Virus record (IMG/VR): IMGVR_UViG_3300021431_000002
DNA: 64,000 nucleotides
Direction: 5' to 3' (one strand)
Source of the DNA: a virus
Lineage: Duplodnaviria > Heunggongvirae > Uroviricota > Caudoviricetes
Below the pieces are notes generated by a model. The model did not search any database and was not told the DNA's origin. It worked only from the letters and a program-made list of their open reading frames with translations. Below are positions 888-36,698 of this stretch, in pieces. Position 1 is the first letter of the stretch; every line of letters starts with the position of its first letter. Position numbers and translations under genes: made by a program.

Positions 888-1077
888 AGTCTCTTTCCTC
901 TGTTTCTTCAACGTTACCGTATGGGTAACTCCTAGAGTTATTATAATATGGGTTATACCTATCAGTTTGGTTTTTTGATAGTTCACCCATAAAATAGCAT
1001 CCCTCTACGCAGCCACCCATTAGGCATAACAAAAGCAATGTTCTGATAATACCTCTAAATAAATCTCTAGCCATCAC
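832..1077 (-). CDS. small putative secreted protein or lipoprotein (81 aa)
   Basis: Hydrophobic N-terminus (IIRTLLLLCLMGGC). The start ATG overlaps the stop of the upstream ligase gene (ATGA), suggesting translational coupling. Confidence 0.35.
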   Translation of the reverse strand: MMARDLFRGIIRTLLLLCLMGGCVEGCYFMGELSKNQTDRYNPYYNNSRSYPYGNVEETEERDYEPINTDTSATTSPRLEY

Positions 1078-1979
1078 TCTACCTTAATGTTTTCGATATT
1101 TTCGTGATACCATGTATTAAACTCTTCAAACTCTTCGTCTGAAAACTCTTTACGCACGGTGTCATACTCAATGTAATCACAGTATTTAACTTTTACAATG
1201 ATTCTCTTACCGCTTCCATTACAGAGTGGAATTACTGGGCGAGCAACAATACCCTCCTCAATCATAGTTGGGTCAGCAGCACCCTCAAACTGAGTTGTAA
1301 AACCACTTCTAACCTTATCTTCGATTTCCTTGAGCGCCATTATACCCAAGAAAGGAACAGTGCCTAGTCCAAGACCCTTACACAATGAGTCTCTTACATC
1401 CTTTGGTGTCCACCAACCTTGCTGTTTGATGTCAAACACACGGAATGCATTACCATTCTGAATGTAACGAGAACCGCACTTCTGAATACCAGTACCAAAA
1501 TACTCTCCGTAGATATAAACTGGAACCTCTTCAAGGGTTACACGATACATATCGGAACATAATGTTTCTGCTTTATTTCCATCGAGCCTATAGTACTCTA
1601 TTTTATTTGTTTCCTTATCTTTTACTGGAGTAAATCTAGCACTCTCTTTGGGGAACATTGCGCAAAGTTGTGGCTTGATACGCTCACCAATTTCTTGCAG
1701 CATTTCGAACTGTCCATGCATAGAGCTTGATTTCTCGTTTTTACCTTCAACGCGAATCTCTTGGGTAGATGGGAAAAACGCAATCTTAGAGTTCGTGCCA
1801 TCAATCTTGCTATATGCCTCCCAAGGACAATTGAAAAGGTAACTAGCCTCAATGTTTGAGAACTCGCCCAAGATTATCTTATTTTTGAATTTAAGCCACT
1901 TCTTGTTTGGGCATTTGCTACCATCAAAAATGTACCTTTTGTACATTGTATCAATTTTTTGATAAACTTCTAGACTCAT
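1074..1979 (-). CDS. ATP-dependent RNA ligase (Rnl-like nucleotidyltransferase)
   Basis: Covalent nucleotidyltransferase motifs: KIDGTN (motif I, KxDG), EGIVARP (motif IV), KVKYCD (motif V). Size 301 aa. Confidence 0.7.
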   Translation of the reverse strand: MSLEVYQKIDTMYKRYIFDGSKCPNKKWLKFKNKIILGEFSNIEASYLFNCPWEAYSKIDGTNSKIAFFPSTQEIRVEGKNEKSSSMHGQFEMLQEIGERIKPQLCAMFPKESARFTPVKDKETNKIEYYRLDGNKAETLCSDMYRVTLEEVPVYIYGEYFGTGIQKCGSRYIQNGNAFRVFDIKQQGWWTPKDVRDSLCKGLGLGTVPFLGIMALKEIEDKVRSGFTTQFEGAADPTMIEEGIVARPVIPLCNGSGKRIIVKVKYCDYIEYDTVRKEFSDEEFEEFNTWYHENIENIKVE

Positions 1980-1998
1980 AAATTTTATTTCTAACTAA

Positions 1999-2202
1999 TT
2001 ATTCTGTTTCTCCTCTCCACAAATTATTTTCCATTTTGTCGGAATGGGAAAATTCTATAATTTCGTCAATGTTATCACATTTAATTTTTTTCAGCACATC
2101 CAATTCAATTTCTCCATTATTGATGTCCTCAACAAGAGACAGCAATGTTCTATATGGGGTTAATAAATTTCTAAGATGTGCCCCTAAAGTTTCTGTTGCC
2201 AT
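1999..2202 (-). CDS. small hypothetical protein. The start is probably internal, because the N-terminal extension of ORF 1999..2253 is the reverse complement of a tRNA
   Basis: The ORF overlaps the tRNA at 2218..2302. Confidence 0.25.
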   Translation of the reverse strand: MATETLGAHLRNLLTPYRTLLSLVEDINNGEIELDVLKKIKCDNIDEIIEFSHSDKMENNLWRGETE

Positions 2203-2217
2203 TTTTTTATTAATTAG

Positions 2218-2302
2218 TAGGACAATGTGGACTCGAACCACAGACCTCCCCATACTAGTGTTTCCACGTTCTGGTGTACTCTACCAACTGAGCTATCGTC
2301 CT
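2218..2302 (-). tRNA. tRNA of about 85 nt with an extended variable region. Anticodon not resolved by hand
   Basis: Acceptor AGGACGA/TTGTCCT, D-arm GCTCAGTTGGTAGAGT, T-arm TGTGG-TTCGAGT-CCACA. Confidence 0.5.
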
Positions 2303-2562
2303 TAATGCAATCTTCATGCGGCTAGCGTTTCCTTCTTCCGCACTCATCTAAGTAATTGCTTGATAACTGACTGTTTTACAATCTCGGTCAAACTAACTCC
2401 ATTGCAAGCATCAATCTGTTCCGAAGTCGAGACTGTTATATCTTAGCAATGTCGTGTGGCAGGACTGCCCTCACCACGTCTTTCAGTTACCGTTTTGAAG
2501 CTTCATGGTGCAAATGTACGAAATTAAATTGATATATCCAAATTTTTTTATCTTAAAAAACG

Positions 2563-3267
2563 TTAATTTTTATAGATTTTTATTGTTACTCCTGCACAAT
2601 ATACCAACAATAACCCTAACATTGTTATCAATACAGAACATCCCCACATATAGTATATAAGGCAGAACATTAAAACAAGCCCAACTACAGTAGAACCTAT
2701 TCCGAATAGGAATTGATAATACAATAACGAGTGCTTTATTGGATAAGATTTCTTACTCAAGTAATCTTCAGCATAGAAGCTTAAAAAATTAGTTATACTA
2801 CTTCTATAATTTAATTTTTCCCATTTTTTAACATCATAATTGTTTATATAAATCATTCTGCAAAGTATTTTAAGCCTTTTTATCAAATCAGAATCATTTC
2901 TCATATTATACAATGTGATGCCTTTCAAATAAATAGGAGAGTCGTCTCTTAGCGCACTTCTTTTTTGTCCTGGAGGAACGTCTTTTATCGAATATCTCAT
3001 GCGGAATAGACCAAAAACTTTTTTGTTTTTTAACGCCCTACAAAAATCTTGCACTAGTTGGTGATTTTTACTAATCCCACAGAATTCAGAATCAATATCA
3101 GCATATGGGTCTTTTTTTATTTGTTCTTCCACCTTTTTAGCTTTTTTTAGTTTTCTTTTTATTCTAAGTTGTCTTAGTTTCTTGCTTTTTCTCATCCTTT
3201 TTGAAGACTTCTTTAAATGGACTAATAATGTTTTTCCAACTAAAGATTCTGTTAAGGATTCCTTCAT
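2563..3267 (-). CDS. membrane protein with a lysine-rich N-terminal region and two C-terminal transmembrane segments
   Basis: ORF in track. C-terminal hydrophobic stretches. Start uncertain because it overlaps 3164..3427. Confidence 0.4.
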   Translation of the reverse strand: MKESLTESLVGKTLLVHLKKSSKRMRKSKKLRQLRIKRKLKKAKKVEEQIKKDPYADIDSEFCGISKNHQLVQDFCRALKNKKVFGLFRMRYSIKDVPPGQKRSALRDDSPIYLKGITLYNMRNDSDLIKRLKILCRMIYINNYDVKKWEKLNYRSSITNFLSFYAEDYLSKKSYPIKHSLLYYQFLFGIGSTVVGLVLMFCLIYYMWGCSVLITMLGLLLVYCAGVTIKIYKN

Positions 3268-3427
3268 CTTCTAAATCCATAACAAGACTTTCCAAAATGC
3301 TTAATTTCTCTTTATATATTGCTGTTTCCTTTGAAACATCAACTAGAGTTTGTTCCAATGACTTAACTTTGCTTTTCAAGTCATTATACTCTTTCATTGG
3401 TATCTCTATCCTTGCCATATTACCCAA
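3164..3427 (-). CDS. small coiled-coil protein (87 aa)
   Basis: ORF in track with heptad-like charged composition. Confidence 0.35.
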   Translation of the reverse strand: MGNMARIEIPMKEYNDLKSKVKSLEQTLVDVSKETAIYKEKLSILESLVMDLEDEGILNRIFSWKNIISPFKEVFKKDEKKQETKTT

Positions 3428-3995
3428 TATTGACTCTTTCTGAATTATTGATAAAGTTTATAACTTTTTCCTCCCCATCTTTTGTTATTGCTGGGCAAAA
3501 ATCAATAAGAACGTGGAAATTAACATTTGGAAATGCCCTTAAACCATCTTTCAATGAATCAAAAAGACACACGTCTAAAGCAATGCCAGCCAAATCAATA
3601 TCAGTTACTTTCATCATTTCACAAATATTACTAAGTAATGCATTAGACTTTTCATTCTTAAACACTGAATATTCCTCGTGGTCTTCATCGACCCCTTTAG
3701 TCAAGACAATATAGTCACTATTAATAGCGTTCAAAGCATCAATAATTGGCTGATAGATTGCTGCATCATGCGTATGTTGTACGCAATGTTCAGGCCATAC
3801 CCCACCGTTTGCCTTGAATGAACAATGTGTATGCGGATGCCAATCTGCTGTTAGAAATATCTTATCATATGCTGGACCGTTTTCACGTATAAATTCAGCA
3901 AGACGATTCATTTTATGGGTTGCACCTTCCACTGGAAGATTACCGCCCTCTAGAAAACCATATTGACAATCTATTAAAATCAAAATTTTATTCAT
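3420..3995 (-). CDS. pncA: nicotinamidase/pyrazinamidase (isochorismatase family)
   Basis: Motifs DCQYGF, ADWHPHTHCSF, EHCVQHTHDAAI, and the catalytic Cys region VTDIDLAGIALDVC. Confidence 0.7.
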   Translation of the reverse strand: MNKILILIDCQYGFLEGGNLPVEGATHKMNRLAEFIRENGPAYDKIFLTADWHPHTHCSFKANGGVWPEHCVQHTHDAAIYQPIIDALNAINSDYIVLTKGVDEDHEEYSVFKNEKSNALLSNICEMMKVTDIDLAGIALDVCLFDSLKDGLRAFPNVNFHVLIDFCPAITKDGEEKVINFINNSERVNIG

Positions 3996-4007
3996 AATTT
4001 ATTCTGT

Positions 4008-4502
4008 TTAATTATTATTATTTTCACATGCGACAGCAGCAGTGGTAAGATTTCCAACAATTTCTGCTATAGCATCATTTTTAATCTCTGCTTCTTTCTC
4101 AGCCTCTTTTGGTTTTTTGACCTCTCTTGACTTTGATGTTTTTTTGGTCTCTTTTGGTTTTTTGACCTCTCTTGACTTTGGTGCTTTTTTAACTTTAATT
4201 GTTTTTGATGTAGTCTTTTTTTGCGTTTCTTGAGTGTTTACAACATCATCAGTAGGCATTTCCACTGTTTCATTTAATGCCTCTGTATCAATAGTTTTTT
4301 CTTCATTATTGATGGTTGTTTTCTTTTCATTTGCTAACTCCTCAAGTTCTTTCATGAATTTCTCTTTTTCTTGTTTCACCTTATACTCAGTAATATCATA
4401 TGTAACACAAGAATTATGATATTTTTTCGCAAATAGGGTCATACAAGAATCAGTTTCTGTCTTAAGACCCTTGCAAGGACAGTTTTTACATAGTGTACCC
4501 AT
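4008..4502 (-). CDS. Cys-rich (CxxC) protein with a C-terminal basic KKPKE/SREVKKPK tandem repeat. Possible DNA-binding protein
   Basis: N-terminal CKNCPCKG...C...C. The C-terminal repeat is encoded by a DNA direct repeat at 4090-4200. Confidence 0.4.
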   Translation of the reverse strand: MGTLCKNCPCKGLKTETDSCMTLFAKKYHNSCVTYDITEYKVKQEKEKFMKELEELANEKKTTINNEEKTIDTEALNETVEMPTDDVVNTQETQKKTTSKTIKVKKAPKSREVKKPKETKKTSKSREVKKPKEAEKEAEIKNDAIAEIVGNLTTAAVACENNNN

Positions 4503-4624
4503 AGTTTTTCTTTTTTATGCAAATATACTAAAAATAATTTAAATATAAAAATATTATATTATATATTATATTTTATTAATATTATTTAATATATTATATT
4601 ATTATAATTAAAGAACCTAATGGG

Positions 4625-6031
4625 TCATACCGTTAGGCTCTTTAATTTATTTTCAACAATCTCAAATGCTTCATCTTTAGTCATATTAGGATTTTCAAAA
4701 TATGCTTCTTTAACAGCCTCTAAAAGTATTCCAATATTTGGTCCACTTTTTAAATGAAATTCCTTCAAAATATCGTCTCCAGAGATAGGAAGTTTAACAT
4801 TTGCTGCTTTTTCAGCATCTTCCATTTCCTCTATTCTATTGAGAATATCAAGAACTTGCCGTTTTTTCTTACCAAAGGTGCAATAAAGATTATTGGCGTT
4901 CATTAGGTCAGCAGTTGCCCCCAAATCATCACCAGTTAAGTTGATAAATTTTCTAATCTTCTTATCTGGCGGTAATACGCCATCGGCATAACTTGCAAAA
5001 CCTCTATGATGCTTAATGGCTGTTTCAACAGATTTGATGATATAATTAGGGTATTTCATGTCCTTCAAGTCGCTTGCAGCAATTTCTGCACTAAACTTAT
5101 CTGGCATCACATCCCTACGTTTCTCTGTTATAATTCTACCAACATCATGGAACAAAGCAGCCAATCTATTTTCAAGATATGGTTGAACAGTATCTAGCAC
5201 ATTCATTGTATGGTCAAATGTGCTAACCATAGGATTCCTTGACTCATAGGCGTAGGTTGTATCATAAATGTCTGGCATCACTCTATGCAAAATGCCACAG
5301 AAATACATTTTCCGAATACCGATACTTGGTTTTTCACAAAGTAGAATCTTGGATATTTCCTCACTGATTCTTTCTTGTGAAATGATTTGAATACGGTGCG
5401 CATTTTTAACCATCCCTAACCAAGTGTTTTTTTCAATATCCCAACCGAATCTAGTTGAAAAACGAATTACACGTAGGATTCTCAATGGGTCATCATTGAA
5501 CGTAACATCTGGGTCAGTTGGAGTCTTTATTACTTGATTTACTAAGTCATCTATAGAGCCGTTAAAATCATGTATTTTCTCTGTGCTGATGTTATAATAC
5601 AGAGAATTGATGGTAAGGTCACGCCTTTTTGCATCCTCTTCAAGACTTCCGAATACAGTTTCTGGGTTTCTGCTTTCCTTGTGGTACTGTTCCTTTCTAG
5701 TTTGGACACATTCAATCTCTATATCTTTGAATTCATCGTTCTTGAACAATTGGAACTTCGCAGTTCCATAGTTTTCAAACACTACTGGATTAGTATTCTG
5801 AATAAAACACTGGTGTTTTATTGCCATATATACAGCAAACAGCATTCCACCGTTTTTCATTTCAACAACGATGTCAATGTCTTTAATGGGTAATCCTAAC
5901 AATGCATCACGCACACAACCGCCAACTAAATATACTTTCCCTTCAAAATGGGTGTTTTTGATTGACGCTTGTATGAGGTCAACTAAGTGTTTGATTCTAT
6001 CATCAACTTTTTTAAATAATAGTTCGTTCAT
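4625..6031 (-). CDS. cca: CCA-adding enzyme / tRNA nucleotidyltransferase (PolyA_pol head domain plus HD domain)
   Basis: GGCVRDALLGLPIKDIDIVV head-domain signature. FHDVGR HD motif downstream. Confidence 0.75.
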   Translation of the reverse strand: MNELLFKKVDDRIKHLVDLIQASIKNTHFEGKVYLVGGCVRDALLGLPIKDIDIVVEMKNGGMLFAVYMAIKHQCFIQNTNPVVFENYGTAKFQLFKNDEFKDIEIECVQTRKEQYHKESRNPETVFGSLEEDAKRRDLTINSLYYNISTEKIHDFNGSIDDLVNQVIKTPTDPDVTFNDDPLRILRVIRFSTRFGWDIEKNTWLGMVKNAHRIQIISQERISEEISKILLCEKPSIGIRKMYFCGILHRVMPDIYDTTYAYESRNPMVSTFDHTMNVLDTVQPYLENRLAALFHDVGRIITEKRRDVMPDKFSAEIAASDLKDMKYPNYIIKSVETAIKHHRGFASYADGVLPPDKKIRKFINLTGDDLGATADLMNANNLYCTFGKKKRQVLDILNRIEEMEDAEKAANVKLPISGDDILKEFHLKSGPNIGILLEAVKEAYFENPNMTKDEAFEIVENKLKSLTV

Positions 6032-6032
6032 T

Positions 6033-6989
6033 TTATTTTATTAATTCTAACGGATACATAAATTTAGCCAATTCGTGGTCATAGTAGAAAACTAAGTCAG
6101 AATCGTTTATTTCCATCCCATTGAGTAGTTTATACACTTGTGGGTAATAAGTGTCAGGAACGCAATGTAAAGTGTGTTTCCTGCCATTTAAATAATCTTC
6201 TTTAATATATGCCGTGACAATTCTGTCAGAAACTCCACGTTTGAAGTCTTGAGACATAAGTTTAAATTTATTAACTCTAAATCGGAATCCCATAAACTCT
6301 TCGTTAGTAACAGCAAGTTTTTTAAATTCCTCTTCTGTACCCAAGAACTTGAGAATAATTTCATCAGTCTTGATAGAGTAGAGTTTCATTTTATCATCAA
6401 ATCTTTCGGCAAGTTTCTTTGCAAACTTATTAGATATTAATTTCTCAATGGCAGATGTCCTTTTACCGTTAAGTTTACCAAACAGCATTTGTCTAAGTTG
6501 TTTTGCGTGTTTGAAATACTCTATGTCAGTGAATTTCTCGATAAACTCTTCATAGGTATCACAATCCTTTACAATTGCTGGGTCTGCATAATTTAATGCT
6601 TGGAAGTTTGCCTTAATCATGTCATAAGACACAAAAAAACAATTACACTGTTCCTTCGTATAAAGCTCTGGAGAACCTACAATTGGTGTCTCTGAAGCTA
6701 TCTCACTCTTAGCACCATTAAATGCCTTGTAAGCCTCGGAGTTGAGTATATAGGCTAATATTTGGTCTTCTATATTATGCCGATACTCAAGGAATTTCTG
6801 CATATTACCGTCAAATTTATCCCTAACAGTTTCTAACAAGGTGAGATATTTTGTTTTTGCCCCACAATCATCCTCAAGTAGTGTTATATGCTCGTCAAAA
6901 TAAGGCGATTGAACTACTTGGATAGGCAAATTGAAATCTTTAACAAATTTACTTCTAAATTGTTTGAGTAACAGTGTATTTTCAGTCAT
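6033..6989 (-). CDS. hypothetical protein (318 aa)
   Basis: ORF in track. Stop codon overlaps the start of the cca gene. Confidence 0.5.
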   Translation of the reverse strand: MTENTLLLKQFRSKFVKDFNLPIQVVQSPYFDEHITLLEDDCGAKTKYLTLLETVRDKFDGNMQKFLEYRHNIEDQILAYILNSEAYKAFNGAKSEIASETPIVGSPELYTKEQCNCFFVSYDMIKANFQALNYADPAIVKDCDTYEEFIEKFTDIEYFKHAKQLRQMLFGKLNGKRTSAIEKLISNKFAKKLAERFDDKMKLYSIKTDEIILKFLGTEEEFKKLAVTNEEFMGFRFRVNKFKLMSQDFKRGVSDRIVTAYIKEDYLNGRKHTLHCVPDTYYPQVYKLLNGMEINDSDLVFYYDHELAKFMYPLELIK

Positions 6990-7070
6990 AATCAGTTTAC
7001 ATTTTACGTTAATGCAAATATATGAAAAAAACGTGAGACTGCAAAATTATCTCACGTTTTTTAATTTTTT

Positions 7071-7835
7071 TTAACCATTATTGATTGAGCATTCAAAAAT
7101 GGTAACTAAATCATTTGGTTTGAGACCTTCCACGAATCTAGAATAGAATTCATTTATCCATTCTTTTTCATCCCCAGAGGAATCTACGTCAACCCATCCA
7201 TTTTCATCTGCATAGGCATAGTTCCAATATGAAGTGCTATAGGTGACATAATCCTCTTTTGACTTGAAATTACTGAAATAGGCTTCTTTATCCTTCATTG
7301 ATTCGTAAATGGTCTTCTCTTGGTCGTTTTGCGGCTCTCTACCATCTACCACAAGTTCCCAAGCTGCTTCATATACCTCTTTGTTAGCACCATTCATTGC
7401 ATCCCAATCAATATCTTTAGCCAATGCACTATATGATTCACTGCCATCTTTTAGTTTAAGAGGAATGCAGAAATTTCTTCCAATCCTACAAGTATTATAT
7501 TTGACGTATGGGTTTTCGTCTGATAATGCATCACCATTTTCATCATAGTACATACCATCGGTAAGTTCTCTGTAGTATTCAAATGGAGATAGTTTTTTGA
7601 TGGTGTCTAGCCTATCTTCCACAGCCTCTTTGGTTATTGGTAAATCTATTTTGTCAATATTTGCTAATATGGTATCAAGTGTTTTAATTGCGGTATCTTG
7701 ATATTTTTTAGCGTTTAGGTATTTGTATTTTACATATGGTTCTGTTTTGTATTCAGAACCATATTTTTCCACTATGCTTTTAGGGTTTTCACCGACAACC
7801 ATCAACGAATAAAATTTACTATTGGTTTGTGCCAT
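7071..7835 (-). CDS. hypothetical protein (254 aa)
   Basis: ORF in track. Confidence 0.5.
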   Translation of the reverse strand: MAQTNSKFYSLMVVGENPKSIVEKYGSEYKTEPYVKYKYLNAKKYQDTAIKTLDTILANIDKIDLPITKEAVEDRLDTIKKLSPFEYYRELTDGMYYDENGDALSDENPYVKYNTCRIGRNFCIPLKLKDGSESYSALAKDIDWDAMNGANKEVYEAAWELVVDGREPQNDQEKTIYESMKDKEAYFSNFKSKEDYVTYSTSYWNYAYADENGWVDVDSSGDEKEWINEFYSRFVEGLKPNDLVTIFECSINNG

Positions 7836-9255
7836 TTTCTCCTCCTACATCTATTGTTAATGCTTCTCTAGGAACTCCAGTTATTGCGTTAAGGTCTCCT
7901 CGCAATCTTTCATAGGTCGCTTCAACAGTTGCTATATTATCTTCAGCTATAGCATAACGTCCAGGTTGTTCCCAATAATGTACCACACTAGGACCAAAAT
8001 ATGGTACTCCATTCATTTCATCAGCATTACCGCCAATCTCTTGCGCTGTTTCAATATTTGGATTTGCCATTTCAAAATCTTCCTCCACTTCTCTTTCTTC
8101 ATTATCTTCAGCAGGACCATCTTCATCAGTTTCTTCATCAGCATTGCCAAAAATAGCATCATTAGTAAAAGCATCCCTAAAATTCCCTATTGTTGATGAA
8201 ACGGTATAATAACTTTTTTTATCTATCGAAAATTCATTTTCTTTAAGCTGTTTAGAAAAGTCGATGTTAAAGTAGTCTGCTGCTGCGTTATTAAAGTTGA
8301 AAAACTGAAACGAGCACAATGACTGAAATAAAATGTCGTTAATTACGGATTGATTGGATTCATCAAACCTACTATAAGTCCAGATATAAGGTTTGCTTTT
8401 ACTTTCAATCATTCTATTATATATTTTATCCATTACCACTCTTTCATCGTTAAGGTCATTTAAAAGAGTCTTATCTTTTGTGACCCAAGGGCTTTTCTTG
8501 AAAGCGTTTGTTCCTGGATATGCGAATGATGGCGAACTAGGCGTAATAATACAAGATATTTTATATTCGGAAAGTATTTCATTTATCCCATCTTCATCAA
8601 ATCTCATACGTTCATTTACCCAAAACATTTTTTTACCTATTCTTTTTTCTTGCTCAGATTTCCAAAGCCTATCCAATGAAACTTGACCACCGATACATAA
8701 ACAGTTGAATTTGTTTAGTTTAACCACAGAATAATCTTGAATAGTTTTCACATTACTAAGATTAAGTAATTCATCCGTAAAATATTTGGGGTCATCATTA
8801 CCTCTCACAAATAGGATATGCGTGTTATTATCGGCTAACACATCATTTAGCATATTAAATTTGTCATAATAATATTTCAAATCGTTTTGACCAAATGTAT
8901 TTGAGCCATTGACAATTAACACTGCGTTATCTAAAGAATAGCCACAATATTTTGGATGTTTGCTCATTTTGTTTACACACCTTCTAATGGTATTGCCATG
9001 TTGGTCACGAGGTTGTGGAATACCGCCACCTATGCCAAATGGGTTGTGTATACCACCAAATAATGATTGGGTCTCTTCTTCTTGTTTTCTTCTAATCCTT
9101 TCTTGTCTTTCTATTTCTTTTGGGTGCTGCTCAACTTTATATTTACTTATGTTGGTTAGACTTCCAACAATCATTTTAACAAAACGGTCAACGTTCCCAT
9201 TAATGCTTCCGCATATTAAACAAGTCTTGATTTTACCATAATCATAAATTTTCAT
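7819..9255 (-). CDS. putative calcineurin-like metallophosphoesterase
   Basis: GSINGNVDRF (GDxxDRG-like) and ILFVRGNDD (GNHD/E-like) motifs. Adjacent to cca and the ligase. Confidence 0.35.
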   Translation of the reverse strand: MKIYDYGKIKTCLICGSINGNVDRFVKMIVGSLTNISKYKVEQHPKEIERQERIRRKQEEETQSLFGGIHNPFGIGGGIPQPRDQHGNTIRRCVNKMSKHPKYCGYSLDNAVLIVNGSNTFGQNDLKYYYDKFNMLNDVLADNNTHILFVRGNDDPKYFTDELLNLSNVKTIQDYSVVKLNKFNCLCIGGQVSLDRLWKSEQEKRIGKKMFWVNERMRFDEDGINEILSEYKISCIITPSSPSFAYPGTNAFKKSPWVTKDKTLLNDLNDERVVMDKIYNRMIESKSKPYIWTYSRFDESNQSVINDILFQSLCSFQFFNFNNAAADYFNIDFSKQLKENEFSIDKKSYYTVSSTIGNFRDAFTNDAIFGNADEETDEDGPAEDNEEREVEEDFEMANPNIETAQEIGGNADEMNGVPYFGPSVVHYWEQPGRYAIAEDNIATVEATYERLRGDLNAITGVPREALTIDVGGENGTNQ

Positions 9256-9399: not shown

Positions 9400-11505
9400 T
9401 TATGCTTTTGTAAGCTCTAATTCTAATTCCTCTTCTTCTGCTAAAGCACCTACTTTCTCAGTAGTATACTTTCCGAATATTGAGTCAGTTGGCTTTATGT
9501 ATTCGTCCAAGTTAATACCGAATTCTTTTGCCAAACTTTTATCCTCTTTTCTTATTTTCAAATCTGGTCGTTGTCCAAGAACTTTAAGTGCCTCAAGGTT
9601 GTTGTTTCTGATACAATTACCAACTGCTGTGCAATCAAAATCGTTAACAACGTTTACATCAACGTTTTTATTGGAAACTAGCTCTTTTACAATCCATACC
9701 TCATTTGTGTACTCACAAGCAGTATTAAGAGCGCAATCGTTATTGATGTCTTTTGCTGCAAGATTAAAGTTTTTACTAGAAAGGATTGACTTAATCATAT
9801 TAGTCAATATCTTGTTATCCTCTTCTGAACTTGCAACCTCATCACTTCCATGCAAATAGATTAATGACTGAAGCAAAGTTTCGCCAAAACCATCCTCAAT
9901 TTGTGAGTTGAATCCATCACAATTAACAATAGTGTCAAAAAGTTTGAACATTTTGTTAGTTATTGCTGAGAAAACAGGGATTCTCTGGTTAAATTCGTAG
10001 TTAACATTAATATTACCACGTTCTTTCTCAATCAACTTGATAGCCCCAATCTCATCGTTCTCATCAATGAGTTTGTGAAGAAGGATTGATGGGTCAATTG
10101 CCTCACGATTTAGATACTTATCCGTAGAAATACCAATTTTTGATAAATATCCTTCTTTTGAAATTTCAGCACCAAAAATGTCATACATCACAGACAAAGA
10201 CAATGTGCCATACATATCCTTGCGATATTGCATTGCAATAAGTGACCTTTCATTGTTTATTGGGAGGTTAAAATCCATAAACAAATAGGTTTTGTTGTTA
10301 TTGTCAATGGAGTTGAAATTGTTGGTTTTGATGAAAGTCTTTTTAACAAAATCATTGAACACTCTAGAGTTAAGGACATTTATAATCAAACGTCCATCAC
10401 CCTCATATGCAATAGCAAATGATTCTGGAGATTTTTTGACCATTGCTATCATATCGGTAATGTTCCAAGAGAATCCTAGTTCTTTAGGCAAACGCATGAA
10501 AGTGCTCATTTTAATGCCGAAATTATCGAACACATTATAAATACTTAGATTTTCGTTGCCTTGTCTATAAGGATTAATCATTGAATAGTTATGGCAAGTT
10601 TGTGCTTCAACAATGCCAGTTCCACCCTCAACAGTAAAACCAATGTGTGCAAATGCATCACTTTCTTTTCTGCTAAAGTCGAACAAGAAATACTGACTAC
10701 GATTCGCCTTACTTGTTACATAACTCTTGAAATACGACTCTTCACGAGCGATACACCAACCAGTACGTCCATTACCGCATAGTTTATGACTAGATTGGAA
10801 CGATGGAACATAAACAACTACACAAGGACCTTCGTTGAAAACCACTTCGCAGTCTTTTGCATTGTGTTCTATATAAGCAAGAAGGTCTTCTTTACCCTCT
10901 TTCCAATCATAAGTTCTATTGAGGCAATCTAGAATTGCTTGATGGAGTGATGCAGCGTTTTTAAGAGCAGAACTACTGCTGTAGAACTTGTTCTTAATAT
11001 TCATAGGTTTTTTATTGAACGTCTTGAAAACATCATACCATTTCTTAATGTTTGCATTCTCATACGCCTCAATTGGAGTGTATTCCTTACCCAAAATAGA
11101 TTCAGTCAGAATCTTTTTCTGCTCTGTATTGAAATGAGAGATAATATTCTTAACAAAAGCAATACGCTCAAGACCCTTAATCTCTTTAAGTAATTGGGCA
11201 ACTCCACTTTTATTAGAGTATGATACAACATTCTTCTTTTCGAGCTTGTTAATCATGTTACTGTTGGTAGTAATCCAAGTGTGAATGGTTTCCAACTCTT
11301 CAAAGGTCATTGACTGAGAGAATATCATTCTAACAGCCCAAATCTGGTAGTTTGACTGACCATCGAACATTTCACATACTTTAATAAATAATTTGTTAGT
11401 CTCTGGATTGATGCCATACTTATCAATCAAAGGCTGCATCTGTTTTTTATTATAAGTCATGTTTAATAAAAGAATTAAATTTGTTTTTTCCGTTTGTTTG
11501 TGCAA
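9400..11505 (-). CDS. large hypothetical protein (701 aa). Paralog of 11823..14282 with an ankyrin-like C-terminus
   Basis: Shared core with 11823..14282: DKYGxNP, WCI, YFLFDFS...IGFT. C-terminal repeats resemble ankyrin (GNCIRNNNLEALKVL). Confidence 0.6.
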   Translation of the reverse strand: MHKQTEKTNLILLLNMTYNKKQMQPLIDKYGINPETNKLFIKVCEMFDGQSNYQIWAVRMIFSQSMTFEELETIHTWITTNSNMINKLEKKNVVSYSNKSGVAQLLKEIKGLERIAFVKNIISHFNTEQKKILTESILGKEYTPIEAYENANIKKWYDVFKTFNKKPMNIKNKFYSSSSALKNAASLHQAILDCLNRTYDWKEGKEDLLAYIEHNAKDCEVVFNEGPCVVVYVPSFQSSHKLCGNGRTGWCIAREESYFKSYVTSKANRSQYFLFDFSRKESDAFAHIGFTVEGGTGIVEAQTCHNYSMINPYRQGNENLSIYNVFDNFGIKMSTFMRLPKELGFSWNITDMIAMVKKSPESFAIAYEGDGRLIINVLNSRVFNDFVKKTFIKTNNFNSIDNNNKTYLFMDFNLPINNERSLIAMQYRKDMYGTLSLSVMYDIFGAEISKEGYLSKIGISTDKYLNREAIDPSILLHKLIDENDEIGAIKLIEKERGNINVNYEFNQRIPVFSAITNKMFKLFDTIVNCDGFNSQIEDGFGETLLQSLIYLHGSDEVASSEEDNKILTNMIKSILSSKNFNLAAKDINNDCALNTACEYTNEVWIVKELVSNKNVDVNVVNDFDCTAVGNCIRNNNLEALKVLGQRPDLKIRKEDKSLAKEFGINLDEYIKPTDSIFGKYTTEKVGALAEEEELELELTKA

Positions 11506-11553
11506 ATATATAATAATTTTTCTACTCTACAAAATTTTTTATGTTAATAAAAA

Positions 11554-11742
11554 TTAAAAGAAAGAAAAATATATTGTCCATGAGATAATGATTATTATCA
11601 TCATTATAAATGAATAAATTGCACTATTTTTTGTTTCATCTTCGTTGAAGGCGATGACCCTGACTGCTTTACTGAATTTATCGTTTATAAAAAAAACGGT
11701 AAATGCAATAGCAATAAACAACGTAAATGTTTTCATCATCAA
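11554..11742 (-). CDS. small membrane protein (62 aa)
   Basis: ORF in track with two hydrophobic helices. Confidence 0.3.
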   Translation of the reverse strand: MMMKTFTLFIAIAFTVFFINDKFSKAVRVIAFNEDETKNSAIYSFIMMIIIIISWTIYFSFF

Positions 11743-11822
11743 AATGAATTAAAAATGTGGTGTGTAAATACCTTACACACCACTTATTTTTTTTTTTTAG
11801 AATGGTGTGTCAATCACAAATG

Positions 11823-14282
11823 TTAACGGAATGTTACCGTATAGGTTGGCATAGTTACAAATGCGCTAGAAATGAAATCTTCATGCTCTTTCTTTGACTT
11901 TAAAGCACTTTCATAGACTGGTTTAATCCATTCATACTTATCAGCAAGTTTTTTAATTGCTTCTTGCATTTCTTCATCACCATATCTAACGAAATAGTTA
12001 ACGATATATGACGGTGAATCCTTTTTACTAGACATATTCAAATTATTAAGCATCATAAACATGAACTCTTTTATAAGGCCTCCACTAAGGCCTGAGTTGA
12101 AAATGTTACTCAATAATTTTACATAGGCGATATTGAAATCCATTTTGTTACTGTTGTTTTCACTACCCAAGATACGTTTTATCAAAAGATAATAGCCGAC
12201 ATAGATGACATCTTCACGATTAGGTATCTTTTCGTCATAGAACAGATGTATTCTCTCTTCACTAGGTTTTTCAAGAATCCCATTCCTATACAACTGTCTA
12301 GCAGCACTTTTCAGATAGTTAAACAAGTTCTTCAGTAATTCAGCAATATGTGAGGAATCCATATACTCTACAAGATAATGACCGTTGTCATATATCAAAT
12401 CTAGATAATCGAAAGACAAATAATCTACAAGTGACGAATTGATGTAGGAATAGTTATTTCCGATGTCAAAATATTCATGCATTGCCCTGTGCAAGCAATT
12501 TTTATCAACCTTTATGCATTCCTTTAACATCTTAGTATTAAACGATGTATAAGCATTCCTTACTTTTTTGTCAATGTCATCAGTCCTTCTGATAATATCG
12601 TAAGGTACACCAAACTCAATCAGCTTGCCATCGAAACTAGCGCGTGTCTGGGTAGATGACTCATTGAATACGTTGCTTGGGTAATCTTCCCCACAACCAC
12701 CGTCGTATATTATGGAAAACAGCAATTTATTTGAATCATATTGGCTGATAGAAAAATCGGCAAATATGATGTGCTGTAACTCATAATCATCTGACGAAAT
12801 ATTATCCATATAGGCATCACCTAACAAATATTTGATGTTCTCATCACGGACAGAGAGTACTAGTTTATCTCCATCGTGTTTGATTATGTCAACATTGTTT
12901 TTATCAACGCATTCGTAAAGGTACGACATGAAATGGTCATAATCCCACTGATATTGAGGTCTGTCATAATGTGCAACAAGTGTTATGTCAATACCACAAT
13001 TTTGTAGCACACTATATATGCTATTCCTACCGTTAAATCTAGCCAAATATGATTTGAGCATAATTGCGTTAGGATTGTTACCAGCATCCATTAGATTGTC
13101 GTTAATGAAATTATGCGCTGATGTAATGCCTTTGTTGTGCGTGGTTGTAAATCCAATAATGGATAGTTTATCATCCTCTAACTTTGAGAAATCAAATATC
13201 ATATACTGGGTAGATTTACCATGAGTGTTACCGACATATTGATTCCAATATGTTTTGTTTTTAGAAATACACCAGTTAGTAGTCTTACCCAACTGTTTTA
13301 TCGTGTCGTAGTCATCAACTTTAACCAAGACTACATAATCGTTTTCAAATATTACCTTGTAATTAATTCCCTCTACATTATTGATGAAATCCATAAAGGA
13401 ATCTTTGTTCCAGTCAAAATGAACACTTGTCACATGCCTCATCTGACGCATAAGTTCATTGAAATCATCAATCGTGGATACTTTCTTAATGAAATTTATC
13501 TTTTTTATCTCTGAAAGTTTAGAGAATCTTGCAAGGGTTTTTTTATCGGTGTCAGATAATTCGTTGTTTCTCAACAATTTTTTCTGAGCCGTGTTAAATT
13601 CGTTAATCGCATCACCAACTCTCTTCTCATTCCTTAATACTGACAGCTCTTCCATAAGGTCGTTTATATTACTCTGTGTGGTATACGCAGTTATTGTGCC
13701 CTTAGAAAGTTTCTTAGTCAATTGTTTATAGTATTCATTCCATAATAAGATATTATGTATGGTTCTCATAGAGCAATGCGCCTTGAAGTATACATCAACA
13801 GCCCACTGGAAAAAATTCTTAGAGCCATCGGTATATATGTACAATCTCTTGCATTGTATATCATTTGGGTTTAAACCATACTTATCTGAGAGGCTTTTAA
13901 TCATTTTTGCATTTTCTTTCAAAAATGCTTGATAATCCTTATCAAATGATTTTGGCAATAGAGTGATTTCAGTCAAAACATTAGCATAATCGCCAAACCC
14001 ATTTGATGTTTTACTAACCTCTAGTAACCTAGGATGGTTAATGCATTGTAAATCATTCGCAATCTCTTTCGAAAGACTAGCCAAAGCTGAAGTTCCGAAG
14101 TTGTGATTATTAAACCAATTATTGAAAATGAACATTTTTTCACCAATCTGTGAATTTGGGTTTGTCTTTAAAACCTCACAAATGTCAAAACCATGTTCTC
14201 CAGCCCTAACTAAAATCTTTCTAAGAGAGTAATCAGACACCCTAAACAAGTGTCTGATTCCTCTTATATTAGTACCTATCAT
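11823..14282 (-). CDS. large hypothetical protein (819 aa). Paralog of 9400..11505
   Basis: Shared motifs: LSDKYGLNP, TTNWCISKNKTYW, YMIFDFSKLEDDKLSIIGFTTTHNKGITSAHN. Confidence 0.6.
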   Translation of the reverse strand: MIGTNIRGIRHLFRVSDYSLRKILVRAGEHGFDICEVLKTNPNSQIGEKMFIFNNWFNNHNFGTSALASLSKEIANDLQCINHPRLLEVSKTSNGFGDYANVLTEITLLPKSFDKDYQAFLKENAKMIKSLSDKYGLNPNDIQCKRLYIYTDGSKNFFQWAVDVYFKAHCSMRTIHNILLWNEYYKQLTKKLSKGTITAYTTQSNINDLMEELSVLRNEKRVGDAINEFNTAQKKLLRNNELSDTDKKTLARFSKLSEIKKINFIKKVSTIDDFNELMRQMRHVTSVHFDWNKDSFMDFINNVEGINYKVIFENDYVVLVKVDDYDTIKQLGKTTNWCISKNKTYWNQYVGNTHGKSTQYMIFDFSKLEDDKLSIIGFTTTHNKGITSAHNFINDNLMDAGNNPNAIMLKSYLARFNGRNSIYSVLQNCGIDITLVAHYDRPQYQWDYDHFMSYLYECVDKNNVDIIKHDGDKLVLSVRDENIKYLLGDAYMDNISSDDYELQHIIFADFSISQYDSNKLLFSIIYDGGCGEDYPSNVFNESSTQTRASFDGKLIEFGVPYDIIRRTDDIDKKVRNAYTSFNTKMLKECIKVDKNCLHRAMHEYFDIGNNYSYINSSLVDYLSFDYLDLIYDNGHYLVEYMDSSHIAELLKNLFNYLKSAARQLYRNGILEKPSEERIHLFYDEKIPNREDVIYVGYYLLIKRILGSENNSNKMDFNIAYVKLLSNIFNSGLSGGLIKEFMFMMLNNLNMSSKKDSPSYIVNYFVRYGDEEMQEAIKKLADKYEWIKPVYESALKSKKEHEDFISSAFVTMPTYTVTFR

Positions 14283-14293
14283 AAATTGTTTTG

Positions 14294-15742
14294 TTAGAAT
14301 TTAATTTCATTACTAAATTTATCATTGATAACCTTTTCGAATTCACTGAATTCTACTTTAGACTTTTCGCACAAAGCCTTAACCGCCTCAAGAACATCTT
14401 CTTTGATGCCAAGGATATGTGAATCATAGCGATTAACAATATACTTGACTGTTTCAAACTTGAGTTCATCTTCTTTCTTTGTAGTGGTTGTGGTAGTTGT
14501 ACGAGTAGTCTGGCTAGCGAATCCATAATTGCTCCTACGGCAGTTATCTCCAAGGTCTCTAAGCAATTCAGTATCGTCAGTTGTGATACACTTGTATGTA
14601 CCATCAGCGTTGCGCTTGTACGTATTATTTGTACGGTTAGTCCAACTGCTAGTGCTCTTGAGTTTATGCTCTGTGCAGCCAATGTTATCAACAAGGTCAA
14701 TACCCATACCGCAAGCACTATCCATATCCTCTATAATTGTATACTCCGTAGGAGAGTGAGGATTATAGCCACCGTTACCAAAGTTCATACATATAATATC
14801 CGTTTTCTCACGAATATTCTTCACATCGGTATAAGGCTCAGAGAAGAAACATCCTTTAGTAAGACCCCAACGGTCGCATACGCTTTTCATATGCTTTGTG
14901 TAGAAATCATAGCTAAAGAGTTTAACACTGCTACATGCCCAAGCAGCACGATAAAGTTCTGGAGAGTCGAATCCAATAACGTAACCGACATTTTCAAACC
15001 ATTCTTTATCCAAATTATCAGAGCCGTGACATCCAGTTTCCTCATCCAAGAAGAAGCAAGCCTTGAGTTTATCTACATAATTGAACATGGTCAAACAGAT
15101 GCAGACACCACCCTTGTCATCAGCACCAATACCAATAGATGCTCCACCATTCGAGTCAACACTAATTTTATGGTCTCCCTCCTTAGTTCTCTCTGTTTTA
15201 ATATCAAGAGGAACGCCAGCATAGATATATGGGTCTTGTCTATCTTGAACAGTGTCCAAGTGGGAAGTTACACAAGGATAAAATTCTCCCTCTGCAAGTT
15301 CACCCTTTGTGAGGTAAATGTTACCGAAGTCATCGAATTCATAGGTAATGTTATTCTTTCTAGCCCATAACATAATGAATGTAACCATACGATACTCTTT
15401 CTTAGAATGAGTTGGTACAGCCATGCACTCATATACGAATTCTTTATCCAAGTAAAGGAGTTTCATATCATCATCCCTTGGGTCTTCTGGAAGCGTCTCC
15501 TTTACATCTTCATTGGACTTTGACTCAGTTGAGGAATTAGCATTGTTGTCGGTAGCAACAGTGTTAGAAGATGTTTTCTTTTCATCTTTATTCTCTACAT
15601 TCTCGTTAGAGTCATTTTCATTTGTTTTTACCTCTTGCGTAGGAACATTTTCCTCATAAGGTGTGTTGGCAACAACATTGCCATTCTCATTTAAAGTCTT
15701 TGAGTCAGCCATTTCTATTATTGTTTTAATAAGTTTTCGCAA
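14294..15742 (-). CDS. putative M20/M42-family zinc metallopeptidase with a low-complexity N-terminal region
   Basis: HLDTV and GADDKGG motifs. Poly-Thr linker TTRTTTTTTTKK. Confidence 0.45.
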   Translation of the reverse strand: MRKLIKTIIEMADSKTLNENGNVVANTPYEENVPTQEVKTNENDSNENVENKDEKKTSSNTVATDNNANSSTESKSNEDVKETLPEDPRDDDMKLLYLDKEFVYECMAVPTHSKKEYRMVTFIMLWARKNNITYEFDDFGNIYLTKGELAEGEFYPCVTSHLDTVQDRQDPYIYAGVPLDIKTERTKEGDHKISVDSNGGASIGIGADDKGGVCICLTMFNYVDKLKACFFLDEETGCHGSDNLDKEWFENVGYVIGFDSPELYRAAWACSSVKLFSYDFYTKHMKSVCDRWGLTKGCFFSEPYTDVKNIREKTDIICMNFGNGGYNPHSPTEYTIIEDMDSACGMGIDLVDNIGCTEHKLKSTSSWTNRTNNTYKRNADGTYKCITTDDTELLRDLGDNCRRSNYGFASQTTRTTTTTTTKKEDELKFETVKYIVNRYDSHILGIKEDVLEAVKALCEKSKVEFSEFEKVINDKFSNEIKF

Positions 15743-15772: not shown

Positions 15773-16044
15773 ATTGATATTAATTTTAACTTTCTTTAAC
15801 TCGGATTCATTCTATTATCGCACATCTTACTAATGGTGAATGTTTGATTTTAGGTTCAATCTGAATTCTTCTTTCTTTTCTTTTACCAATTGTAATATCC
15901 TTTTCTTTACAGTCTTTAGTGGCAACATTAACGCCTATCTTATACCCAAGTTCTTTTATGAGACTAACTCTGAATTCAATCTCTTTGACGTGGGTAATAA
16001 AATAACAAATGTCTCTAATATCTCTATTTACATTTTTTACTTTC

Positions 16045-16407
16045 TTACGCATTGTGCAACACAGAATTTAAAAGTTTCTTTTTGTCATGCGGAGAAAGTT
16101 TAAACCATTTACTTGAGAAATGAGACAAACCAAATTCTCGTTTAATTTTGGTTTTATCTACATTTGCTAAAGAGTCGTAAGTTCTAATCAATTCACCTTT
16201 AAGTAAAATATTTTTTTGCTGGTTTGTTAATCCATCAAATCTATTTGCCCAATCATTAGATGGTAAGTTGTATTTTACAAAAATGTGTTTATACTTATAA
16301 CTTGCGTGTATTCTTTCTTGTATGGTTTTTGAGTTCCACTTATCGCATGCTTTTCTCTCTATTATTGTATGAGATAGAATATTACTGACGTTTTCATTTT
16401 CATTCAT
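16045..16407 (-). CDS. hypothetical protein (120 aa)
   Basis: ORF in track. Confidence 0.4.
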   Translation of the reverse strand: MNENENVSNILSHTIIERKACDKWNSKTIQERIHASYKYKHIFVKYNLPSNDWANRFDGLTNQQKNILLKGELIRTYDSLANVDKTKIKREFGLSHFSSKWFKLSPHDKKKLLNSVLHNA

Positions 16408-16409
16408 TT

Positions 16410-16928
16410 TTAATCGTTCTTCTTTAAAACATGGAAGCAGAACTGAGTTCCATTACCTTGCAACATTGATTTGTAATAGGTTCGCCATTCCTTTTCATCA
16501 AACTCTGGAAAAAATGTATCTCCATCATCATCATCTTCCACAATAGTTAACCTTAACTCGTTGACAAGGTTTCTCTCCATAAACTGACGGTATATCTCAC
16601 CACCACCGATTACGAATAGTTCCTTATCAGAGAAAAAAGCGTTACACAATTCGATAACGTCATCAATTGAGTTTACAATGTATACGTTATCGTATTCACC
16701 ACTTACTCCAAAATCTCTAGAAGTCGTAAGAATAATGTTTATCCTATCCTTCAGAGGCACACCATTGGGAAGGGATTCGAAAGTTTTTCTACCCATAATG
16801 ACAACTCCATTATGTTTAGTCATCCTAGCAAAATTATTAATATCGTTATCTATCCGATACAATAATTTACCATTTTTTCCAATTACTTGTTTTCGATTCA
16901 TACAAGCAATAATAATAAATTTAAGCAT
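16410..16928 (-). CDS. folA: dihydrofolate reductase
   Basis: IGKNGKL, VIMGRKTFESLP, PLKDRINIILT and FVIGGGEIY signatures. Start trimmed to the Met that aligns with the DHFR N-terminus. Confidence 0.8.
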   Translation of the reverse strand: MLKFIIIACMNRKQVIGKNGKLLYRIDNDINNFARMTKHNGVVIMGRKTFESLPNGVPLKDRINIILTTSRDFGVSGEYDNVYIVNSIDDVIELCNAFFSDKELFVIGGGEIYRQFMERNLVNELRLTIVEDDDDGDTFFPEFDEKEWRTYYKSMLQGNGTQFCFHVLKKND

Positions 16929-17526
16929 ATATAATATTATTTTGGTTATAAATGTTTTTATAAATTCTATCACTAAAAATATTGTATTTTTTTACTATTG
17001 ATTCCCTAATATAATATTTTAATTTAATTCCGTGTGCTTCACAAATTTCTTTTTTTCTTAAGTCTCTTTCTATTTCGTTTTCTAAAGAACTTGTAAAAAA
17101 ACTAGATTCAATAAAATGCTGTATTCCTTGACACTCGATAGCCACATTTTCTTTATCCAAATAAAAATCCACACTTTGATTACCAAGAATACCGCCAATA
17201 TTACTATACCTTTCATTAGAAATACCCATTCCGTTTAGAATCAATAGTATTTCATTTTCTAACGTACTATTTTTACAATCTGGACACCCTTGACCTCTTA
17301 AATGTGCTGAAGGTATCTGCCAAAATTCGCCATGCTCTGGACATATTATGCACACTTTTGTCTCATTATTTATATATTCTACTTTAGAATAGTCATACTT
17401 ATCACCATGAACTTTTTTAGCATCATTAATAAAGGCATCTAATTTTTTTTTCAATTTATTTGCTGCATTTTTTCTACCGCAAATTGGACATCCTTGACCT
17501 TGAAGATGATTTATAGGCTGCTGCAT
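16921..17526 (-). CDS. putative HEF-like homing endonuclease (duplicated zinc ribbon plus a PD-(D/E)xK-like C-terminus)
   Basis: Duplicated HLQGQGCPICG / HLRGQGCPDCK motifs. VDFYLDKENVAIECQGIQH. The 3' end overlaps the DHFR start. Confidence 0.4.
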   Translation of the reverse strand: MQQPINHLQGQGCPICGRKNAANKLKKKLDAFINDAKKVHGDKYDYSKVEYINNETKVCIICPEHGEFWQIPSAHLRGQGCPDCKNSTLENEILLILNGMGISNERYSNIGGILGNQSVDFYLDKENVAIECQGIQHFIESSFFTSSLENEIERDLRKKEICEAHGIKLKYYIRESIVKKYNIFSDRIYKNIYNQNNIIYA

Positions 17527-17660
17527 AAATTCTCCATGTATAGGGCATCCTATTTTAACTTTAGTATGATTAGTTACATATTCTACTTTAGAATATAAAT
17601 TAAGTAATTTGATGCAAATGTATAAAAAAAAAATGAGAGTTCAAATAGTGAACCCCCATT

Positions 17661-17993
17661 TTAATATACTTTAACATCTAAAATCGTGCGCCATAACATT
17701 TCGCTAAAAAGTTTGTTTACAACTTTTTCATATTTATAATTTTCCAAATCTTCTAGCATTGGATATTGTTTTTTCAATGCTGTCGGTTTTTCATTAATTG
17801 GATATGCAATTTTGATTTTTATTGGTTTCAAATTATCCTCCGTATAATTATTTCCATATGGATTTATATCATATGAATAATACGCAGTAACCTCTTCAAC
17901 ATCGTAATGATTCATTGCAATAAGGTTTTCGCATTTCCAATCTTCTAATTCAATTTCGATTTTCATCTTTCCAGTAGCAATATAAACAGCCAT
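17661..17993 (-). CDS. hypothetical protein (110 aa)
   Basis: ORF in track. Confidence 0.4.
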   Translation of the reverse strand: MAVYIATGKMKIEIELEDWKCENLIAMNHYDVEEVTAYYSYDINPYGNNYTEDNLKPIKIKIAYPINEKPTALKKQYPMLEDLENYKYEKVVNKLFSEMLWRTILDVKVY

Positions 17994-18723
17994 TGTTACA
18001 TTTATGCGGCTTTATTTTTAATAATTCTTTTTTATTACTAGGGCAATGACAACTGTTTCGTTGTCCTTTACTTCCTTCCAATGTAATGTCATCAGTAAGA
18101 CCTAAAATATCAATATCTTTCTGAGAAAGACAAGGTACGCTATCAATTCCTGGCTCTCCGCAAGCCTCAACTGATTCGTAACCGCATTCTTCAGCGCAAT
18201 ATTTAATTGCTGTTAGGCATTTTCGTCTTTCTTTTAGTGGGGCATGAAATTCACCATTATATAGTTCAACCCCAATTTCTTTAAAACGCTCTCTGACGTG
18301 TTTATAATTATCCAAGAAGGAAATCCTTACCCTTTTAATCCCAAGCCCCCTAAAGAGTCTTAAAACGCTTGTAGCGGTGTTTAAACCCTTGAAGGTTGGA
18401 ACTATTGGGTCAACCCTTAATACTATATGGTCTGTTGGAAAGCCACCATCAATCAATTTTTGTAATTTTTCTAAAGTTGCTTGTGGATTAGGAACAAACG
18501 GTTCAATACGAGTTGACCCCATGCCAGTTACGGTAAGATGTAATATTATCTTATCTTTATACTCGATAAGTTTTTCTATCAATTTATCGGTTAACCTTTT
18601 TGTGATGATAATATTAGCCTTATATAGCCTATCGAAAGCATCTAGGTTATAAGCGATTTCACCTGATTCCGTGGTCCCAATTCTATTTCCTATGTCTGAA
18701 ACTGATTTTTTTGTCGAAGCCAT
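17950..18723 (-). CDS. hypothetical protein with a Cys-rich C-terminus (CHCP...C..GC.YC)
   Basis: ORF in track. Confidence 0.4.
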   Translation of the reverse strand: MASTKKSVSDIGNRIGTTESGEIAYNLDAFDRLYKANIIITKRLTDKLIEKLIEYKDKIILHLTVTGMGSTRIEPFVPNPQATLEKLQKLIDGGFPTDHIVLRVDPIVPTFKGLNTATSVLRLFRGLGIKRVRISFLDNYKHVRERFKEIGVELYNGEFHAPLKERRKCLTAIKYCAEECGYESVEACGEPGIDSVPCLSQKDIDILGLTDDITLEGSKGQRNSCHCPSNKKELLKIKPHKCNNGCLYCYWKDENRN

Positions 18724-36410: not shown

Positions 36411-36607
36411 TTTTGCGCCTTGTTTATCTTAGGTCAATAATATAGAATAGGTTTACCTATACCAACCATAAAGGTATCCTCTTATCCATCAAGGAACTAG
36501 GGTAAGGGGCTAATCCTCGCACCGCATTACTGCTTCACCTACCATTTCTTACGTGGTTTGTGCTGTCTTACCTATTTCAGTACTTCACTTGAGTACACCA
36601 GCCGTAG

Positions 36608-36698
36608 TGAGCATAGTAGGATTCGAACCCACGATGAACTTTCTCAAGCCCATAACGGTTTTAGGGACCGCCACAATCGACCACTCTGCCATATGCCC
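36608..36698 (-). tRNA. class-II tRNA with a CUA anticodon loop (CCCTAAA): candidate amber-suppressor tRNA
   Basis: Acceptor GGGCATA/TATGCTC plus A73. D-arm GCA-GAGTGGTCGAT-TGT. Anticodon arm GCGGT-CCCTAAA-ACCGT. Long variable arm. T-arm GTGGG-TTCGAAT-CCTAC. Confidence 0.45.

Follow-up and report, generated by a model that had tools for sequence, protein, structure and literature searches.

The 64,000-nucleotide stretch of DNA considered here (the window), taken from the IMG/VR virus record IMGVR_UViG_3300021431_000002 (Caudoviricetes), carries two neighbouring paralogous genes, gene A (positions 9400-11460, minus strand, 686 residues) and gene B (11823-14282, minus strand, 819 residues), which are part of a conserved gene block of a very large phage lineage. 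Both encode a module of about 320 residues, consisting of an all-helical domain and a small alpha/beta domain around a T-x-W-C-I motif, and in each protein this module is joined to a different predicted repeat domain. As a tentative proposal, held with less than even confidence, A and B may be thiol-dependent enzymes (hydrolases or transferases) that are aimed by their repeat domains at protein targets in the infected cell.

BLASTP aligns A with B at an E-value of 3e-27 and 24% identity over about 370 residues (A 19-382, B 124-483), a stretch that takes in both the DKYGxNP region and the WCI...YF(L/I)FDFS...IGFT...GI core, and the confident structural models of the two proteins have the same domain order. 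This agrees with the paralogy and the common motifs proposed in an earlier note, made from the letters of the sequence only, in which the pair was described as two open reading frames (ORFs) on 9400-11505 (701 amino acids) and 11823-14282 (819 amino acids); both are present as given, on the minus strand, although the word "giant" used there overstates proteins of 686 and 819 residues. The most likely start of A is the ATG at 11460, because the first 15 residues of the mechanical ORF (positions 11461-11505), which begins with the TTG at 11505, are absent from the homologs, and these begin with MTYNKKQ.

The AlphaFold2 model of A, built from an alignment of 132 sequences, has a mean predicted local distance difference test (pLDDT) score of 91.5. 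It predicts a helical N-terminal domain (residues 16-215; 10861-11460, minus strand), common to B and containing the DKYGxNP and FNTxQKK motifs, then the alpha/beta cysteine core, delimited by predicted structure and alignment (residues 216-335; 10501-10860, minus strand), a second alpha/beta domain shared with B (residues 336-450; 10156-10500, minus strand) and an ankyrin-repeat domain (residues about 470-680; 9466-10098, minus strand). Within the core, Cys251 (codon at 10753-10755, minus strand) is placed by the model at the N-terminus of a helix (251-254) that is followed by three strands, and His287, Gln302 and Asn306 lie on or just past these strands. The ankyrin repeats that had been noticed by eye at the end of A are recovered by Pfam, where Ank_4 scores 24.1 bits (gathering score 22.7) and Ank_2 stays below its threshold (24.8 bits, gathering score 27.3); precomputed Ank_2 or Ank_4 matches are also present in many A homologs, and the C-terminus has the expected fold of stacked helix-turn-helix repeats. 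The search for homologs of A returned 401 proteins, none with a name.

The model of B (AlphaFold2, alignment of 99 sequences) has a mean pLDDT of 89.0. Residues 111-545 form the same three domains as in A, that is, the helical domain, the cysteine core (residues 303-435; 12978-13376, minus strand, from predicted structure and alignment) and the second alpha/beta domain. B carries the T-x-W-C-I cysteine as Cys338 (codon at 13269-13271, minus strand), which is again modelled at the start of a short helix, with three strands after it; Ile375 occupies the place of A His287, and His390 and Asn394 are conserved. The shared part is preceded by a B-specific N-terminal domain, beta-rich according to predicted secondary structure (residues 1-110; 13953-14282, minus strand), which begins with the conserved sequence MIGTNIR..RHL.RVSD and has no Pfam family match, and it is followed by a predicted helical-repeat domain of HEAT/ARM/TOG-like type (residues 546-806; 11865-12647, minus strand). 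Conservation in B is lowest in this solenoid, at an identity of 0.38 against 0.68 in the core. We collected 334 homologs of B. Foldseek found no match of the B model to the PDB below an E-value of 1; the fold searches had full-length models as queries, and their match lists were dominated by repeat domains.

Conservation was profiled over 525 sequences, comprising A-type and B-type proteins, representatives of clusters at 50% identity and proteins of a related type from Lak-like phages (Lak type, described below). In A numbering, Cys251 is kept in 522 of the 522 sequences that cover the column, in the A, B and Lak-type families alike, with Thr248, Tyr262, Gln271, Gly289 and Thr291 showing no or almost no variation. 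At position 302, B (121/121), the Lak type (111/117) and most of the divergent A-type representatives have a His; at position 306, A and B have an Asn and the Lak type has an Asp, and such an Asn/Asp swap is typical for a residue that orients a catalytic His. In the helical domain, W56, W77, Y96, E108, N126, T127, Q129, S179 and W201 are invariant in the A and B families, and within each family conservation is highest in the helical and core domains.

The gene order peptidase-B-s62-A-p478-p254-(p318)-CCA enzyme is kept in all 16 related loci (15 from IMG/VR and one contig from ENA), at 32-94% protein identity, with 32-36% for the farthest orthologs. As A and B are only 24% identical and both orthologs stand in the same order in every one of these loci, their duplication must be old; the earlier description of the pair as tandem-duplicated therefore holds insofar as the two are neighbouring paralogs, and fails if a recent event is meant. 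The fixed order in 16/16 loci also speaks against a variable anti-defence island, and the anti-defence setting that had been suggested for the pair is unsupported since the block is conserved rather than variable; no gene was matched by the PADLOC models and no PHROG family of known defence or anti-defence function was matched either. The block is set among genes for DHFR, RNA ligase, the CCA-adding enzyme and an isochorismatase-family protein, together with a large array of transfer RNA (tRNA) genes.

A profile of the shared region retrieved 1,257 cluster representatives (50% identity) at an E-value of 0.001 or better among 1.84 billion proteins, and the best 150 of these 1,257 all resemble A or B in length and layout. 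The named homologs are all called "hypothetical protein" except one Lak-type entry, called "ankyrin repeat protein". The module family is confined to phages. When 185,579 species genomes were considered, the sole relative was found on JBGVIL010000178.1 (97.9 kb), a contig binned to a fecal "Bacilli bacterium" metagenome-assembled genome, representing either a phage contig binned in error or a clue to the host, and a tblastn search of plasmids with the B core found nothing. In INPHARED, there is no close DNA or protein match for the region or for B, and the A core matches only two records, both of uncultured Lak-like phages of 634-642 kb.

One of these records, LR745206.1, encodes a 641-residue A-type protein (5128-7053) that consists of the common helical domain, a Cys core with R-H-C-I and an ankyrin end, and that is a true homolog of A: hhalign aligns it with the shared module at a probability of 98.3% and an E-value of 2e-14. 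This match stops at the core and the ankyrin matches start about 50 residues further on, and the Lak-type protein differs from A by the apparent lack of the second alpha/beta domain, by H-C-I in place of W-C-I, by Asn, Gln and Asp at positions 276, 281 and 306 and by its gene neighbourhood, in which we found no genes in common with the neighbours in the window; it is equally uncharacterised. Its relatives number 425, and their contigs reach 630 kb. By these sequence comparisons, the A-type layout occurs in two megaphage lineages at the least, while the INPHARED search detected no B-type paralog in the Lak-like phage records. We also observed in LR745206.1 (634 kb), about 1.9 kb upstream of the A-type homolog and on the opposite strand, a 359-residue ORF (2178-3257, minus strand) with the sequence H-E-L-N-H (HExxH).

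According to the proposal that we tentatively favour, an ancient duplication would have given rise to A and B, leaving the same module joined to differing solenoids, of ankyrin type in A and HEAT/ARM-like in B. The invariant cysteine, modelled at the N-terminus of a helix and facing strands that carry conserved His or Gln and Asn or Asp, would form the active site and perform the catalysis, and the repeat domains would bring the module to two different host or phage proteins. The enzymes would act inside the infected cell; A and B both lack a hydrophobic stretch at the N-terminus. A thiol enzyme is favoured because the conserved polar residues, the helix-capping cysteine and the two solenoids, one of them fast-evolving, are what would be expected of a protein-directed enzyme, and the faster evolution of the B solenoid relative to the core is as expected for a target-recognition part. 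An effector or inhibitor role for the pair remains a plausible hypothesis from the architecture, in which a conserved module is combined with protein-binding repeats. Several observations weigh against a thiol enzyme. The module has no Pfam, PHROG, NCBIfam, PADLOC or PDB-sequence match in scans of whole proteins, excised cores and alignments of 17 and 30 members, which leaves it with no supported link to an enzyme family, although this blank does agree with the earlier remark that no known domain could be recognised over the shared core. The invariant cysteine could be structural, and the candidate His appears from the alignments to have no one fixed position across A, B and the Lak type: the 136 A sequences near that of the window all have a Gln at position 302, and position 287 is a His in the A type, an Ile in B and a Thr or Val in the Lak type. 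Asp276 and Glu281 are likewise replaced by Asn and Gln in the Lak-type family.

The variable position of the candidate His and the failure to detect an enzyme family would be readily accommodated if A and B were non-catalytic binders, with solenoids that tie up or inhibit defence enzymes, housekeeping enzymes or other proteins of the host and a module that serves for folding, oligomerisation or A-B pairing; this is the main rival, which we consider possible if somewhat unlikely. Ankyrin inhibitor and immunity proteins, namely Bd3460 (5cea) and a type VI secretion system lipase immunity protein (7ubz), are among the matches of A and speak for such a binder. It accounts poorly for a module that is the most conserved part of both proteins, or for Thr, Cys, Tyr, Gln, Thr and Asn residues that are invariant across three families at 20-25% identity, which is unexpected in a mere scaffold. 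The module matches no catalytic domain of the known ankyrin-enzyme fusions (Legionella AnkX, RNase L, tankyrase) or of ankyrin immunity proteins. The idea that A and B are associated with the virion or ejected, or that they help to build the megaphage particle or a replication compartment, appears very improbable: both are large and conserved clade-wide, and large phages do package big internal proteins, but no PHROG structural family is matched and the neighbours are metabolic genes. The clear homology to a structural or replication protein that the earlier note had named as fatal to its view was found for neither gene. We give just as little credit to cell-wall hydrolases of the NlpC/P60 type acting in a lysis cassette with s62, which has two hydrophobic segments, and the M20-like peptidase. 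NlpC/P60 and papain-like cysteine hydrolases do resemble A and B in having a Cys at a helix N-terminus followed by strands with a His and a polar residue, and in A the corresponding triad would be Cys251/His287/Gln302. The NlpC/P60 references were four Escherichia coli paralogs and 80 viral domains, 79 of them in the large hhalign profile. The core profile weakly matches the NlpC/P60 chain 7cfl_A (E-value 0.24, AHIGFT being aligned to sHVGIY) and hhalign against the 79 domains gives P 0.038 with 0.36 for the reversed control; the four E. coli paralogs are matched at a probability of only 0.07%, the best hidden Markov model (HMM) score on core sequences is 10.6 bits against 11.8 for the reversed control, and Pfam NLPC_P60 (PF00877) has no match in the A and B cores. 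The likeness of motifs is thus weak and not above controls, and membership of the family was rejected as the HMM does no better than its control and Pfam is blank; the canonical His is absent in B (Ile375) and in the Lak type, A and B lack the N-terminal hydrophobic segment, and their genes sit amid genes of nucleotide and tRNA metabolism. In our judgement, an endolysin with ankyrin or HEAT-like domains would also be unusual.

The searches of excised cores and alignments against family libraries gave no recurrent match, the matches to DUF3873 being weak (E-value 0.012-0.06), and the remaining candidate is PcfJ (PF14284), a lead prompted by a resemblance to the PcfJ H-C-V motif, for which the tests were suggestive but not significant. 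PcfJ proteins (447 residues for that of pCF10) have, like A and B, a long and poorly conserved N-terminal region before a small domain, and this domain has the same elements as the A/B core in the same order and with similar spacing: an invariant [H/W]-C-[V/I], a Tyr, a hydrophobic strand, a Thr strand and a conserved Asn. PcfJ is found on mobile elements and many viral contigs, and A and B on viral contigs. Unlike A and B, PcfJ has no second alpha/beta domain and no end of ankyrin or HEAT-like type, and its domain ends the protein whereas the A/B core is internal. That the core is a very divergent PcfJ-like domain, with a role possibly linked, as in PcfJ itself on conjugative plasmids and in prophages, to establishment or anti-defence, seems to us distinctly unlikely, despite an order of motifs (strand-helix, [HW]-C-[VI], Tyr, hydrophobic strand, polar loop, x-T-x strand, x-[HQR]-x-x-x-N) that is common to both and in which the counterparts within the core are W/H-C-I, Tyr262, Thr291 and Asn306, the Glu and Gly of PcfJ not being kept. 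With pCF10 PcfJ, four relatives from plasmids and 80 PcfJ domains from viruses as references, in profiles of 5 and 34 sequences, we obtained an hhalign alignment of 99 columns in exact register (Cys, Thr and Asn each on its counterpart), and at a threshold of 5 bits PcfJ HMMs matched 19-23 core sequences, where the reversed controls matched 0-1. The Lak-type R-H-C-I resembles the R-H-C-V of PcfJ, and in pCF10 the PcfJ gene adjoins a gene annotated as of the AcrIIA9 family, a Cas9 inhibitor (region 15874-17984). The hhalign alignment only reaches P 0.16 (reversed control 0.52), the 5-sequence profile finds nothing (P 0.67), 21 of 150 column shuffles reach the observed hhalign score and 8-11 of 150 the HMM measures, and Pfam PcfJ, which matches one of 30 core sequences at an E-value of 0.1, is not matched at its gathering score and has no match in the other 29 or in ten Lak-type proteins. 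On sequence grounds the link between the core and PcfJ is therefore suggestive, not significant. No sequence relative of PcfJ with a solved structure was found, and our literature search yielded nothing on the function of PcfJ or on ankyrin proteins of megaphages. In pCF10, PcfJ also has an ArdC-like gene a few kb away. Returning to the thiol enzyme, its broader form, in which the module would be a hitherto unrecognised thiol-enzyme domain characteristic of megaphages from gut and rumen, duplicated onto different solenoids so that one chemistry serves for two host proteins, and perhaps a remote counterpart of PcfJ, is in our view rather unlikely.

Among the neighbouring genes, the one located 11 nucleotides upstream of B (14294-15742, minus strand) encodes an M20-like metallopeptidase, as had been suggested from the sequence together with its poly-Thr linker. 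It matches PHROG 4191 "peptidase" at an E-value of 5e-30; Pfam M20 gives 18.2 bits (E-value 0.0025), below the cut-off of 24.6, and the NCBIfam models of the PepD and PepT-like subfamilies give E-values of 2e-7 and 5e-7, far under their cut-offs. The motifs SHLDTV at residue 160, GADDKGG at 206, LDEETG at 232, GFDSPE at 257 and NPHSPTEY at 327 presumably provide the metal ligands typical of the M20 family (H-x-D, a bridging Asp, Glu-Glu, Asp/Glu and His). The N-terminal 95 residues or so form an acidic region of low complexity with many Asn and Ser residues; further on, seven consecutive Thr (residues 415-421) precede a C-terminal domain of about 60 residues.

Between B and A lies s62 (11554-11742, minus strand), a 62-residue ORF without the charged tail typical of holins. 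Its position gives a tblastn match in 13 of the 16 related loci (42-85% identity), and a 61-residue gene is called there in a related contig of about 412 kb. A consensus scan places a strong putative terminator-like hairpin with a 12-bp stem and a T-rich tail just past the stop codon of B (11757-11783, minus strand) and a putative promoter-like site at 11813-11786 (minus strand), and from these signals B and A may be separate transcription units. On the other side of A, p478 (478 residues; 7819-9255, minus strand) is kept in synteny, mostly through its N-terminal 340 residues; it had been called a phosphoesterase, a name that finds no backing in any library scanned (Pfam, PHROG, NCBIfam, PADLOC and PDB sequences).

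All long ORFs of the window are on the minus strand, with a guanine-cytosine (GC) content of about 0.34 and a GC skew that is negative throughout. The surroundings of the pair (1074-6031 and 16410-18723) comprise genes for an RNA ligase, an isochorismatase-family protein, the CCA-adding enzyme, DHFR and a DUF1848 protein, and look like a region of RNA repair and of NAD and nucleotide metabolism; NUDIX and NAPRTase genes were also seen in the corresponding region of the related 412-kb contig. An array of 31 tRNA genes and a transfer-messenger RNA (tmRNA) extends over 23795-63928 (minus strand) and contains four copies of tRNA-Met. The tmRNA (41626-41951) encodes the tag GENVDSPAYEYAIAA, and a tRNA with a CTA anticodon (36607-36698) could read TAG, while a crude test inside the window gave no signal of TAG or TGA recoding. 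Homologs of A and B lie on contigs of up to 360-425 kb, several of them viral contigs of about 410 kb in IMG/VR, which places the window in a very large phage; the phage is one of the gut or rumen, and the contigs of the A/B lineage measure about 270-425 kb.

Animal guts harbour megaphages in abundance; these phages are uncultivated, and for the majority of their genes no function has been assigned. In public data the A/B family comprises over 1,200 clusters (50% identity), all of them unannotated in the searches run, and its fixed synteny in one megaphage lineage, together with its recurrence in the Lak-like lineage, indicates that it probably serves a need of these phages. A module with an invariant cysteine that is joined to exchangeable protein-binding repeats offers a testable handle on this need and, if the link to PcfJ is true, work on A and B would also illuminate a widespread plasmid protein.

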